NCBI GenBank assembly: GCA_000165345.1 | Contig: CM000432.1 | Span: forward strand, 832,001-896,000 | Direction of reading: 5' to 3' | Length of the DNA stretch: 64,000 nt | Notes under the pieces: generated by a model | Database searches by the model: none | Seen by the model: the letters and a program-made list of their open reading frames with translations, nothing else | What the model was told of the DNA's origin: nothing | Position numbers and translations under genes: made by a program | In this document: one piece after another, positions 5,231 to 11,608 of the stretch | How the letters are laid out: each line of letters begins with the position of its first letter | How positions within the stretch are numbered: the stretch's first letter is position 1

Positions 5231-5506
5231 TTAATTTTCGTTTGATTCTTCAATTCTTTCAATGTAGATTGGTGACATTGGGTCTGCTTCTTTAATAAGA
5301 CTTAGATCAAATTTATGTTTAGCTATCTTTGAGTTACTATTCAAAGGAGGCATTTTTGATATCTCAAGTTGATTTATTTTCAAGAAGTAGACATTCTTTT
5401 CGATTGAGTCAACGTTATCAATTACAAGTAATTGTGCTATTCCTTGTATTGGACTCTGTTCCATCATAACTTCCTTATTATCATTGCAAATCACTATATA
5501 TAAAAT
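5231..5506 (-). CDS. Exon 2 of the same gene
   Basis: A TTATTCGTAG acceptor ends at 5507. Exon 2 starts at 5506, in frame with ORF 5231..5494. The intron 5507..5580 is 74 nt. Confidence 0.55.
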   Translation of the reverse strand: MLYIVICNDNKEVMMEQSPIQGIAQLLVIDNVDSIEKNVYFLKINQLEISKMPPLNSNSKIAKHKFDLSLIKEADPMSPIYIERIEESNEN

Positions 5507-5580
5507 CTACGAATAAAAGTCAATTAGAGTTCGTTATTCCTCCAATAATATATATATTAGTGGAAGACTTGATGACTTAC

Positions 5581-6831
5581 CTCATTTTTAAGTACAAAAC
5601 TACTTTCTGAAATAGGGTATTCAATCCTCCCATTACAAGGCATCTTTATTAAGATTTCTTTTGAAGAACTTGGAAATCTTTCCTCACCTAAATTGATCCC
5701 ATTCAGTTCAAGCCACATAATACCAATTGGGTCTGCTATTTGAATAATAGGCGAATTAAAGCTTTGATCTAAAAAGTTGATAGTTGTCTTATTCTCAGAT
5801 TTGTTTTGTTGAAGAGATTCTGTATAACCTCTAGAAGGTGAAATTAAATGTTTTATGACAATTTTCTCTTTTTCAATACAAATAAACTCAACAATTTGTT
5901 CTCCTTTTACAAATACTTTTCCATGTTCTTTTCCCCAAGCTACTCTTCCATTACAAGGCATAAATAATGGAATTGCAATTAAATTACTTTCAAATATGGG
6001 AGGGTAATAGTTTTCAAGTATTCTAAGTATAACTTCTCCTTTTCTAACAAAGAATTTTTTGTTTAAATCCAATTTTGAGTTAATATTATCAGATATATTT
6101 AAAATCATTCTTCCATTTAAAAATTCAATTACTTTACCTTTAAATGGACTATATCTCTCTTTAATATTTCCATTCATGCAATAAATTATATAAAGAGATT
6201 TATTTTCATGAAAAATTAACGTCTCCTCAAGTTCTATATTGAATTGTATTTCTCCATCACAAGGTGAAATTAGAGATGCCCATATATATTCAGAGTTTTC
6301 TTTTAAATTTATGTTGAGTTGATCTTCTTTTTCAAGTTTTCCAAGGTTATTTAGATTGAGTTTATTATCTCCTCTGTAGAATATTACATTGGATTTTTCT
6401 AGAGTTCCAATTCCAAAATCATTATTGATTGAATTTGCTGTGTTATTTTTAAAGTTATTTTGAATTGGTTGTCCAAATCTAGAAAATTCATTAATAATAG
6501 GAATAAATGATTTGTTTGAGAAAATTTCTTCATCTGTAATATTATTATTATTATTATTTTTAATTTTCCATATTTTATTAATTTCTTTAATACCAATATA
6601 GTCTTTATAATACCAATAAAGTTGTCTCTTTTCAAATTCAGAAAGTTCTGATTGTTTGGAGATTTTTGGAGTTCTTTCTTCATAAGGCTTGAATTTTTCT
6701 TTTTGTTCTTTAATAATTCTGAAAAATTTCACTATTACTGAGCATGTTATTTCTTTTGTAAAACTATGAAATACTCCAAAAAAAACAATAATATATATAT
6801 ATATTAAATACCTTTTATTAACAACCATCAT
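5581..6831 (-). CDS. Exon 1 of a two-exon gene encoding a repeat protein with PC[DN]G[ER] beta-barrel-like repeats. The spliced product would be about 508 aa.
   Basis: ORF 5557..6831 runs through a GTAAGT donor at 5580 and then terminates after 8 codons. Splicing to the downstream ORF is in frame (phase 0). Confidence 0.6.
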
Positions 6832-7006
6832 TAATATTATTTGCTTAGGACGATTTATTACTTATTTTCCTTTTTTTTCGCTCTTTTTTTGTTCTTTTTA
6901 CTTTACTCAAATAAGTAAGTTTTGCAATAAATATTCATATTTTCTTCTTTTTTTTTAATATTTTTATTCAATTTATTTTTTACCCCATGCAAAAAAATAA
7001 AATTTA

Positions 7007-7062: not shown

Positions 7063-7263
7063 TTTGCATTTTTTTCAATTTTTTTGCTTATCACCCACCC
7101 CCACACAAATTTATAATTATAATGGAAACTTTAATTTATTATTATTTAATATGAACAATTAGAACCTAGAAATTAGAAACTAGAATTATAATACATATTA
7201 ATCTCAAGTTAGTCAAATTTAATGCAAGAATTTGGTAAAGTTATATTATGTTAAATATAAATA

Positions 7264-7626
7264 ATGTATATGTTATTAAAAAAAATATTATTGTCGATTT
7301 TTTTTTTAAATTGGTTTTTAATAATAAAAAGAATTAAAGGGATTGATTTGAATGATGATAAGGAAATATTAATAAGAGAATTGGGTATCCCTTTAAGAAT
7401 GAAACCATTTGGAGAAAATAGAGTTCCTAGTTTAAGAAATTTTAATTATAAAACTCAAGGAGAAAATAATAATTATAGAGTGGAAATTAATAATTTATAT
7501 ATTAATGATAGATTTCAATTATCTTACTATTTGAAAATAGGTGATAAAAATGCTAAGTTTTTGTCTTGTGGTTTCAAGTTTAGGTTTAATAATACAACTT
7601 TACCAATGCTTGTAAATAGAGGAGAG
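7264..7626 (+). CDS. Exon 1 of a two-exon gene encoding a signal-peptide protein (about 338 aa after splicing)
   Basis: A GTAAGT donor sits at 7627 directly after codon GAG. The ORF stops shortly after if the intron is left unspliced. Confidence 0.55.
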
Positions 7627-7711
7627 GTAAGTTTTAATAAATTAAAGAAAAAAGGAAATTATTTTAGTTCAATTAATTAACTAATTATATATTGAAAATA
7701 ATTTTTGTCAG

Positions 7712-8365
7712 ATATTAGGAACTTTGATTTGTGGGGAAAAAATGAGCTCTAAAAAAGAGCTGCCAATATTATCTTATTGTTATGGACAGGTTCAACTGGC
7801 TTATCCATTTCTACCACTTCCAATAATTCTTTTAAAAGAAGAAGATACGTTTTTGATTCAATTATGTGCAAAAAAGTTTCCAGATTATAAAGGAATTCCT
7901 TATAAATTTCCAATAATTCCTCAAGATCAGAAGATTTCATTTAATAATACATTATTTGAAACAAATTACTTAAAACTTGAGAATAAAAGTTCAAAGATCA
8001 TTTATAAAGTTAATGAGAAACAATCCAATATAATTGAATGTGTAATAAATCGATTATTTGATGGTAAAATCTTTCAAGTATTGGAATATTCCATTATAGG
8101 AATAATTGCATGCAAATTAAAGATGAAAGATCAAAAAATACAAATAGAAAGAAAAGTTATTAGAGCTTTTTGTAGTGGTAGTTCAAGTTTTCAATCTGGG
8201 AATAATACTGATTTTATTTATGGTGTTTTTAAAGTAAATAAAAAATTTCCATTTAATTGGATAGAATGTATTTCAAATCCTGAAGATTTGTTAGAAAAGA
8301 AATTAATGAATCCAGATCAAGCCATAAAAGATGCTTTATATGAAATGGATGAAGAAGAATTTTAG
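7712..8365 (+). CDS. Exon 2 of the same gene
   Basis: A TTTTTGTCAG acceptor ends at 7711. 7712 is in frame with ORF 7724..8365, whose track start is a TTG artefact. The intron 7627..7711 is 85 nt. Confidence 0.55.
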   Translation: MLGTLICGEKMSSKKELPILSYCYGQVQLAYPFLPLPIILLKEEDTFLIQLCAKKFPDYKGIPYKFPIIPQDQKISFNNTLFETNYLKLENKSSKIIYKVNEKQSNIIECVINRLFDGKIFQVLEYSIIGIIACKLKMKDQKIQIERKVIRAFCSGSSSFQSGNNTDFIYGVFKVNKKFPFNWIECISNPEDLLEKKLMNPDQAIKDALYEMDEEEF

Positions 8366-8596: not shown

Positions 8597-11500
8597 TTAA
8601 AGATTATATATATATGTATTATTTGTTAAATTAATTATACTATGCTTTCTATTGCTCCAAAAAGATTCAAATTCTATGAATTCTTGAATTTGTTGATTAA
8701 AGGAAATAGATTGATAAATTGAATCAAAATTTTCTTTTTGTTTGGTTTTAATCAAGTCTTGAATTATTCTTTCTTCATCAATCATGAATTTAACTTTAAT
8801 TGTTGGGACTTGAATTTCAAGATTATGGCTATGCTTTTTGGAAGTAATTTGTATTGTCTCAGATTTTGATCTAAGTTTTGAATTATATTGGCTATATTCA
8901 CTTTCAGATCTTCTTTTTCTTTTCTGTTCTCTCTTTTCCAAGAAAGATTGCTTTGGATTTGGTGAATTTTGACTTCTTTTTTTGACCTTCTTATTATTTT
9001 GGAATTCTTGTTTTTCCTTGCTGTTTTGTGATCTTGATCTTGATCTTGGCTTTGATCTTGACTTTGATCCTGATTTTGACCTTTTCTTTTCTTTTCTTGA
9101 AGATGTAATAGATGATTCTCTATAACTTGGAGAGAAATCTTGTTTCTTTGAATGACTCATTTCTGAACTTTGATCTGGATTTTGTGACTTTGATCTTTCT
9201 GTGGCATTTTTATTGGAATTTGGTTCTAAAGTAATTCCATTGGTTGTATTGTTTGTTGAATACTGTGTTTGATTTGAAATTGGAGTTAAAGAAGAATTTT
9301 GAGCTGGATATGGAAAAGGAACTGGAGAGTATGGAAAAGGAGTTAAATGGTATGGGTAAGGATATAGATATGGATATGGAGTTGGAGTTGGATAAGCAAA
9401 AGAGGTTGGAATTGGATATGGAGGTGCCAGATAAGTCAACGCAGTTGGAGCTAAGGTTGGACCTGGAACTGGATGAGGAACTGGAGTTGGATATGTAGCT
9501 AAGCTTGGATTTGGGGCCGGAACTGGAGCTGGACCTGGGGTTGGAGCAGAAGCTGGAACTGAAGTTGAAGAAACCATTGTTTGTGAAAGACTCGGATCCC
9601 TTGAAGGTTCTACTTGAGATATATATGAACCAGGAGCCGAAGCTGAAGCTGGAACTGAAGCTGGAACCGAAGCTGGAACCGAAGCTGGAACCGAAGTTGA
9701 AAAAACCACTGCCTGTGAAAGACTCGGATCCCTTGAAGGTTCTACTTGAGATATATATAAACCAGGAGCTGAGTTTGGAACCGAAGCTGGAATTGAAGTT
9801 GGGGAAGCCACTATTTGTGAAAGACTCGGATCTCTTGAAGGTTCTACTTGAGATATATATGAACCAGGAGCCGAAGCTGAAGCTGGAGCCGAGGCTGGAA
9901 CTGAAGTTGGGGAAACTACTTTCTGTGAAAGACTCGGATCCTTTGAAGGTTCTACATGAGTTATAACTGGAGAAGCTGCTTTCTGAGAAAGACTCGAATC
10001 AACAAATGTATTATCTACTGAAGTCAAATGAGATCCTCCAAAAGGTCTTGGAAGACGCTTTAAAGATTTTTTACTATCTTTTGAGTCTGGATTTGAAACA
10101 TCAAATTTATTATTTGTAATAGGCTTTGATGGTTCTAAAATAAAAGTAGAAGAAGATATCTGAGAATTTAATTTTGAAAAACTATTAGAATGAGAATCTT
10201 TAGAATTTGGAGAATTTTGAGATCCTAAAGAGAATAATTCTTGAGGTGAATTTTGAGAATTAGCAATACCCAATGATGATGATTTTGAAGAAGAAAAATT
10301 ACTTTGATTTATACCTGAATCTTTCAAAGAAGTTAATCCATAAGATAAATCATTTTCATTGTTATAATAATGATCCTCACCATCAATATCTGAATCAAAA
10401 ATTGGTGAAATATCCTCCGCTGGTAGGGATATAACTTCTTTTTTTAAACCATTATCTCTCTCAATTTTATCTTTAGTAGAAAAAGAATTACCATTACAAT
10501 AAATATTATACTTTTCAAGATCCATCTTATCATAAAATGGTAAATTAATTTGAAATCTTGTATTACTGCTACTCACTGTATCCTCATACCAAAATCCTCT
10601 ATTTTTTAAAATTACTAAAGAATTAAATTCTATTTCATTTTCTGAAGGAAAAATCTCCAAATCACAATTTGGACATTTAAATATATCATTACAATTTAAA
10701 CAATCTTCTTGTGAATCTACAGATGATTTTCCAGCATTCCTAACTGCTTCCATTTTCAAATCATTGTTAATCTTATCTCTAAGAATTACCATCTGTCTAG
10801 CATCCATATCCATTCTTTCATCTTGTTCTTTATTTATTGTATTCATTAATGATCTTCTAAATATAAACTCTTGTCTTAATAATTCCATCTTATTTTGATC
10901 TATATCAATCTTCTTCTTTCTATGTGATCCTAAATTATCTATTATTGACTTTTCTCTATATTCTTCTCTTATAAATATATAATGTAAACTACTTATTATA
11001 CCAGAATATGAAAATATACCTATATGTTGCATATTCTCACCTATTCTAATTGGTGAATAATATCCTTTTCCTTCATATATATACCAAACCCCTTTAAATA
11101 AAAGAATACTTATTGTATTATTTTCCAACAAATCTTTATCCAAATCCTTTATTAACTCTTTTGGAAGTTTTTTTCCATATTTAAAACCTGACCACATATT
11201 TATATCAACATATTTATATATACAATAATTTATTGAATTATCAATTACTTCGCCAACTAAAACTGGAAATAAACCACTAAATGGACGCATTTTACTAACT
11301 TCTTTAATAAACTTTATTTCTTCCTTCTTTCTTAATTCTACTCTTATTCTTCTATATAATCCTATACTTTGTAACTTTGCATCATTATTAAATTTTTCTA
11401 TTACATCTTTTTTTGCCTTTTCTATACATTCAAGATGATCCACAACAAATAACATTAAACTATCAGTAAATATGTTTCTTTGTTCTGAATATGGAAAAAC

Positions 11501-11608
11501 TGAATTACTAGTATTTATTGATTTTATCCCATTTATATTATTTATTACTATATAAGAGAATATAATCCATTTTAACAAAAAATTTATTAACATTAATTTC
11601 ATCATCAA
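8597..11608 (-). CDS. Secreted repeat protein of 1003 aa. It has a structured N-terminal domain, Ser-rich repeats of 34-44 aa, a Pro/Tyr-rich segment and an RS/KS-rich basic tail.
   Basis: Signal peptide MMMKLMLINFLLKWIIFSYIVINNINGI. Four copies of SYISQVEPSRDPSLSQ-x-V-SPTS(VPAS)n. Cys cluster CLNCNDIFKCPNC. Tail with KKRSKSGSKSRSKPRSRSRS. Confidence 0.6.
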   Translation of the reverse strand: MMMKLMLINFLLKWIIFSYIVINNINGIKSINTSNSVFPYSEQRNIFTDSLMLFVVDHLECIEKAKKDVIEKFNNDAKLQSIGLYRRIRVELRKKEEIKFIKEVSKMRPFSGLFPVLVGEVIDNSINYCIYKYVDINMWSGFKYGKKLPKELIKDLDKDLLENNTISILLFKGVWYIYEGKGYYSPIRIGENMQHIGIFSYSGIISSLHYIFIREEYREKSIIDNLGSHRKKKIDIDQNKMELLRQEFIFRRSLMNTINKEQDERMDMDARQMVILRDKINNDLKMEAVRNAGKSSVDSQEDCLNCNDIFKCPNCDLEIFPSENEIEFNSLVILKNRGFWYEDTVSSSNTRFQINLPFYDKMDLEKYNIYCNGNSFSTKDKIERDNGLKKEVISLPAEDISPIFDSDIDGEDHYYNNENDLSYGLTSLKDSGINQSNFSSSKSSSLGIANSQNSPQELFSLGSQNSPNSKDSHSNSFSKLNSQISSSTFILEPSKPITNNKFDVSNPDSKDSKKSLKRLPRPFGGSHLTSVDNTFVDSSLSQKAASPVITHVEPSKDPSLSQKVVSPTSVPASAPASASAPGSYISQVEPSRDPSLSQIVASPTSIPASVPNSAPGLYISQVEPSRDPSLSQAVVFSTSVPASVPASVPASVPASASAPGSYISQVEPSRDPSLSQTMVSSTSVPASAPTPGPAPVPAPNPSLATYPTPVPHPVPGPTLAPTALTYLAPPYPIPTSFAYPTPTPYPYLYPYPYHLTPFPYSPVPFPYPAQNSSLTPISNQTQYSTNNTTNGITLEPNSNKNATERSKSQNPDQSSEMSHSKKQDFSPSYRESSITSSRKEKKRSKSGSKSRSKPRSRSRSQNSKEKQEFQNNKKVKKRSQNSPNPKQSFLEKREQKRKRRSESEYSQYNSKLRSKSETIQITSKKHSHNLEIQVPTIKVKFMIDEERIIQDLIKTKQKENFDSIYQSISFNQQIQEFIEFESFWSNRKHSIINLTNNTYIYNL
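9560..9990. repeat. Four tandem coding repeats of variable length (98-132 nt) in the 8597..11608 gene
   Basis: The core TGAAAGACTCGGATC recurs at about 9584, 9716, 9818 and 9926. Confidence 0.7.

Follow-up and report, generated by a model that had tools for sequence, protein, structure and literature searches.

The interval 7627-7711 of the window (the whole 64,000-nt stretch of DNA that was analyzed, which is AT-rich, with 23-45% GC per 2 kb) is read here, with a probability of about 0.95, as an ordinary U2-type GT-AG intron of a two-exon Cryptosporidium parvum gene that encodes 338 amino acids. Both the intron and the 338-aa gene model are already known, having been deposited in GenBank for C. 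parvum. The features on which the analysis is based are listed below (^ marks the exon boundary).

7264..7626, forward strand: coding part of exon 1, amino acids 1-121; open in all ten lineages and identical to the N-terminus of QOY42085.1
7264..7341, forward strand: signal-peptide-like N-terminus, MYMLLKKILLSIFFLNWFLIIKRIKG followed by IDL; from hydropathy, with a putative cleavage site
7627..7711, forward strand: GT-AG spliceosomal intron, phase 0, 85 nt; from the sequence, conservation in ten lineages, and GenBank models with an intron at the same position
7627..7632, forward strand: 5' splice site GAG^GTAAGT; from the sequence, with alignment columns G31, T32, A34, and G35 invariant
7681..7686, forward strand: putative branch-point motif CTAATT, with its A at 7684, as read from the sequence
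7702..7711, forward strand: 3' splice site TTTTTGTCAG, a pyrimidine-rich tract plus AG; the AG is invariant in ten lineages
7712..8365, forward strand: coding part of exon 2, amino acids 122-338, with the stop codon TAG at 8363-8365; G124, L126, and C128 are invariant

A preliminary description had placed a GTAAGT donor at 7627 after a GAG codon, an acceptor ending at 7711, an intron of 85 nt between them, and a second exon from 7712 in phase 0. All of these positions were recovered from the sequence. The GAG is codon 121 (7624-7626), the donor GTAAGT (7627-7632) meets the extended GTRAGT consensus, and the acceptor TTTTTGTCAG (7702-7711) includes a pyrimidine-rich tract before the AG. Exon 2 opens with ATA TTA GGA ACT TTG, in frame with the ORF listed from 7724. 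It had also been implied that the TTG from which this ORF was listed is not a real start, and indeed the TTG start is an artefact of listing ORFs with the bacterial code. The genome is eukaryotic, so the two listed frames, an ATG ORF of 138 aa (7264-7680) and a TTG ORF of 213 aa (7724-8365), give only a mechanical view of the locus.

The length of the intron is not divisible by three (remainder 1), and its GC content is 14%, compared to 22% and 26% in the flanking exons. When read through unspliced, the frame of exon 1 ends at the TAA at 7678-7680, after the tail VSFNKLKKKGNYFSSIN. The spliced coding sequence (7264-7626 plus 7712-8365) comprises 1017 nt, that is, 338 codons and a stop. Across the junction, the protein reads ...LVNRGEILGTLICGEK, with the junction peptide GEILGTLICGEK.

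In the mechanism that we propose, the spliceosome would recognize GAG^GTAAGT as the 5' end of the intron, the A of CTAATT at 7684 would probably serve as branch point, and the 3' cut would fall after TTTTTGTCAG. Loss of the 85 nt would join codon 121 (GAG) to codon 122 (ATA), and the spliced mRNA would be translated into one 338-aa protein with a signal-peptide-like start and eight cysteines that are invariant throughout the genus. Most likely, this protein would enter the secretory pathway and form a disulfide-bonded, soluble all-beta protein, in which secretion, cleavage, and disulfides are predicted features.

The intron is typical of C. parvum in length and AT content. In a set of 213 C. 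parvum introns, the length had a median of 61 nt and a mean of 82 nt, and the AT content was 78%; CTAATT, the commonest branch-like hexamer, occurred in 9.4% of them, and no clear consensus emerged for the branch point (Irimia and Roy, 2008; PMC2483917). The interval 7627-7711 resembles these introns in its GT-AG ends, short length (85 nt), very high AT content, T-rich 3' end, and CTAATT motif; the AT content of the published set is somewhat lower (78% vs. 86%). The putative branch A at 7684 lies 27 nt before the acceptor G; a branch A would be looked for in a YTRAY-like motif some 15-40 nt ahead of the AG. In the alignment, TAACTA(A/T) is common to C. parvum, C. meleagridis, chipmunk genotype I, and C. 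ubiquitum. The CTAATT motif is without an alignable counterpart in distant species.

The splice motifs by themselves do not exceed chance. In the window, 28 copies of GTAAGT were counted, compared to 24.1 ± 5.2 expected from shuffles. As it is not over-represented, the motif alone was dropped as evidence. Between the segments SCGFK and CYGQV, 14 different GT..AG pairs restore an open frame in C. parvum. The 13 other pairs are either not conserved in other species or remove conserved residues, and only the pair 7627/7711 recurs at the same position and in the same phase in each of the ten Cryptosporidium lineages compared. The splice is therefore placed above chance by this conservation across species together with the presence of the exact spliced product in GenBank.

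For the comparison, loci were taken from C. ubiquitum, C. meleagridis (two loci), Cryptosporidium sp. chipmunk genotype I, C. canis, C. parvum BGF, and a C. parvum/tyzzeri-like Logan contig, as well as from two GC-richer Cryptosporidium loci in the Logan assemblies SRR31860986 and SRR31861040. Three more distant assemblies were reached via a profile search: GCA_014529505.1, GCA_037039495.1, and GCA_001865355.1, the last of which we take to be C. andersoni. A GT-AG interval was found at the same codon boundary and in phase 0 in 10 of 10 distinct lineages. The residues before the junction are ...RGE in all but the two most distant lineages, which have KE or ED, and those after it follow (I/L/P/D)(L/I)G.L.C across the ten lineages. 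The conserved context can be written as ...RGE^(I/L)(L/I)G(T/A/S)L(I/V)C, and removal of the intron restores a continuous frame. Annotated models cross the junction in C. meleagridis, chipmunk genotype I, C. ubiquitum, C. canis, and the three distant assemblies.

The intron itself has changed freely between its ends. Its length in the ten lineages is 85, 89, 76, 63, 46, 55, 57, 68, 71, and 69 nt (46-89 nt), with remainders of 0, 1, and 2 modulo 3. In the DNA alignment of the ten, the initial GT, intron positions 4-5 (A and G), and the final AG are invariant, and the donor takes the forms GTAAGT, GTGAGT, and GTAAGC. The interior is barely alignable and has diverged to near-random identity, and the 3' pyrimidine tract is weak or absent in several species (e.g., GAAAG in chipmunk genotype I and C. 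ubiquitum). Identity to C. parvum was lower in the intron than in the exons in every pairwise comparison; for exon 1, intron, and exon 2 it was 0.89, 0.83, and 0.93 in C. meleagridis, 0.72, 0.58, and 0.78 in C. ubiquitum, and 0.58, 0.37, and 0.59 in C. canis. The exon 1 differences between C. parvum and C. meleagridis are distributed as 20, 10, and 14 over the three codon positions. As this shows no third-position excess, coding constraint on exon 1 rests on the conservation of the open frame and on the invariant residues P43, L44, Y71, C102, F104, P114, L116, and V117.

At the syntenic locus in SRR31860986 and SRR31861040, the coding sequence has about 50% GC. The introns there (55 and 57 nt, with 47% and 56% GC) lack the AT-richness seen in C. 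parvum introns.

An exact-sequence look-up identified the spliced product with QOY42085.1, 'Uncharacterized protein CPATCC_0019080' of C. parvum IOWA-ATCC (Baptista et al., 2022; PMC8744675). The two proteins of 338 aa are identical, so start, donor, acceptor, and stop are the same. The single protein of about 338 aa that the preliminary description had assembled from two small ORFs thus agrees residue for residue with a deposited record. The window belongs to C. parvum chromosome 4, and in strain BGF the locus is named cpbgf_4003510. The 6,760 bases around the gene have 0 mismatches to C. parvum BGF (CP141121.1, positions 594078-600837); over this stretch the BGF DNA matches the window, and its model WRK31941.1 uses the same splice and starts at M115, giving 224 aa.

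This one gene is deposited at five lengths in close genomes (207, 208, 224, 293, and 338 aa). The 207-aa models are those of Iowa II (XP_625927.1/EAK87774.1) and C. hominis TU502 (XP_667294.1) and start at ATG 7742. The 224-aa model of BGF starts at ATG 7606. The 293-aa models are those of C. hominis UKH1 and TU502_2012, and C. meleagridis has a separate 293-aa entry. The 207-, 224-, and 293-aa (C. hominis) models share a 90%-identity cluster with the 338-aa protein, and the 208-aa protein of C. tyzzeri falls in a neighboring cluster. Among the five lengths, the 338-aa model is the only one to keep the signal-peptide-like N-terminus. It differs from several public records of this gene in C. 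parvum, C. hominis, C. tyzzeri, and C. meleagridis, and secretome predictions made from the shorter models would miss the protein, because these models lack that N-terminus.

It is very improbable that the splice is as proposed and translation starts further downstream, at M115 (ATG 7606, 224 aa, without signal peptide) or at M46 (293 aa), even though models of both lengths have been deposited (WRK31941.1; C. hominis and C. meleagridis). In C. ubiquitum and the two GC-rich lineages, I or V stands in place of M115. The upstream frame is open to an ATG and a hydrophobic segment in 10 of 10 lineages, and P43, L44, Y71, C102, and F104 are invariant in this upstream part. Past the in-frame stop at 7258-7260, the first ATG is the one at 7264. 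In C. meleagridis, chipmunk genotype I, and C. canis, the open frame likewise reaches a hydrophobic-segment ATG upstream of the annotated starts.

A regulated retention of the intron, yielding a truncated secreted peptide of 138 aa with a function of its own, is also most unlikely. Intron retention is common in unicellular eukaryotes generally, a point that is not specific to this gene. Read-through would meet an in-frame stop in 10 of 10 lineages, including the three with an intron length that is a multiple of three, and the retained tail is unconserved in sequence and length, the stop being reached, according to species, after 2 to 31 codons. Furthermore, CPATCC_0019080 is not among the three genes listed as putatively alternatively spliced in the IOWA-ATCC annotation (Baptista et al., 2022; PMC8744675).

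The same annotation is the product of manual curation in WebApollo, which drew on RNA-seq, EST, and proteomic data, and its introns are stated to be 100% RNA-seq supported, a claim made for all introns in general; expression data cover only 87% of the genes (PMC8744675). An exact search for the spliced junction in metagenome contigs gave no match. None of the Logan-assembled contigs on record encodes the spliced protein, and the Logan-derived proteins are pieces of the unspliced ORFs only. A literature search for cgd4_3510 or CPATCC_0019080 found no paper naming the gene.

The least probable reading is that splicing does not occur and two separate small genes are present, 7264-7680 (138 aa) and an ORF from ATG 7742 (207 aa). 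The downstream part was indeed first annotated as a 207-aa protein in Iowa II and C. hominis TU502, and prokaryote-style gene calls on Logan contigs do give two ORFs, but the former was superseded by later curated annotation and the latter come from bacterial gene finders, which are unable to model introns. M132 (the putative second start) is replaced by V or L in other species, whereas all ten lineages share G124, L126, and C128, which are encoded downstream of the acceptor and ahead of ATG 7742. The read-through tail of the first ORF is unconserved and variable in length.

With the two-exon model, the N-terminus of the protein is laid out as MYMLLKK, ILLSIFFLNWFLII, and KRIKG followed by IDL, with G at -1 and I at -3 of the putative cleavage site. 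A cleavable signal peptide would have a charged n-region, an h-region of 10-15 hydrophobic residues, and small residues at -1 and -3. The best hydrophobic 12-mer is LSIFFLNWFLII, with a Kyte-Doolittle mean of 2.34. An N-terminal hydrophobic segment is present in 10 of 10 orthologues (best 12-mer 2.1-3.2), and several orthologues continue with G(I/V)(Q/K/L)(G/A) and then an (I/M/A)(D/E)L stretch. No later transmembrane-like stretch was found by hydropathy in the ten orthologues (best later 19-mer ≤1.4). From hydropathy, the 338-aa protein is predicted to be secreted, as the preliminary description had put it; the N-terminal segment may also be a signal anchor rather than a cleavable signal peptide. 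Eight cysteines are invariant in the ten lineages, one encoded by exon 1 (C102) and seven by exon 2 (C128, C144, C173, C231, C255, C275, and C307). Together with the signal-like N-terminus, they would fit a disulfide-bonded protein of the secretory pathway.

The 338-aa protein had no match at E ≤ 1 in Pfam or among PDB sequences, and a protein search with the spliced product returned Cryptosporidium proteins only. When 1.84 billion representatives were searched exhaustively with a profile, nine orthologues, some complete and some fragmentary, were recovered, all of them AT-rich or Cryptosporidium-like. One further match, to a short segment of a 2,660-aa protein, was marginal (E 2.6e-4). Within the reach of these searches, the family is confined to Cryptosporidium.

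An AlphaFold model made with 7 sequences was unusable (pLDDT 34). The model made with 15 sequences is of moderate confidence, with a pLDDT of 71.8 and a pTM of 0.68, and has an all-beta core at about residues 68-312. It begins with a helix from residue 2, with a pLDDT of about 87 for residues 1-20. Predicted strands at residues 115-117 and 122-129 flank the exon junction, which fits a single folded protein that extends across both exons. A Foldseek search with the model gave nothing significant. The all-beta model is weakly similar to lipoyl/biotinyl barrel-sandwich hybrid domains (GcvH 8ugo_E and lipoyl 1ghk_A), a similarity of fold only and not of membership. Such domains have a conserved cofactor lysine and Pfam membership, both of which are absent from the 338-aa protein; the latter is cysteine-rich and probably secretory. 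As no lysine is invariant among the ten orthologues, the protein has no cofactor attachment site.

Biologically, these results describe a routine intron in a lineage-specific gene. A reading of the raw sequence alone gave the same two-exon model as evidence-based curation, and its value lies mainly in a quality check.

A divergent neighbor gene lies at 5231-6831 on the reverse strand (508 aa in the BGF model) and has one intron, at 5507-5580 (74 nt, GT-AG, GTAAGT donor). Of nine other loci searched, eight have this intron at the conserved position; in the ninth, from GCA_037039495.1, the sequence covered stops short of it. The 432-nt divergent intergenic region contains a further GTAAGT at 6915-6920 on the forward strand, about 345 nt upstream of ATG 7264, which could be due to chance or could be the donor of a 5'-UTR intron.

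The intron of the neighbor sits in ...SFVLKNE^ILYIVICNDNK, which resembles ...PMLVNRGE^ILGTLICGEK of the 338-aa protein. The neighbor protein carries internal repeats at about residues 185-445, with the pattern PC(D/N)G...V.KGE.I..(F/I)IC...SP..G. One repeat, residues 386-444 (or 385-450, where the alignment is longest), matches a segment encoded earlier in the same gene, with a tblastn E-value of about 3e-5 against orthologues. Repeat motifs such as SPCDGEIQF, MPCNGRVAW, MPCNGRIEY, and SPSRGYTE presumably recall the hairpin motif of barrel-sandwich hybrid domains. No Pfam match was found for the neighbor protein.

Both genes could be ancient paralogues of a Cryptosporidium-specific family of probably secreted, cysteine-containing proteins with lipoyl-like barrel-sandwich hybrid modules, which we consider doubtful. 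Aligned to each other with hhalign, the orthologue profiles of the two genes gave no significant match (probability about 1%, pairwise E 0.045-0.1), and a common ancestry of the two genes and their introns is therefore speculation. On this reading, both genes have, throughout the genus, a phase-0 intron that interrupts the same local motif at the same point, and the intron would predate the duplication. If true, the paralogue family could represent an undescribed class of apicomplexan secretory protein.

The downstream neighbor (8597-11608, reverse strand) is an ORF of 1003 aa with a long Ser/Pro-rich region and a basic tail rich in Ser, Lys, and Arg. With repeat units of the type ...YISQVEPSRDPSLSQ...SVPASVPAS..., it looks mucin-like or of low complexity.
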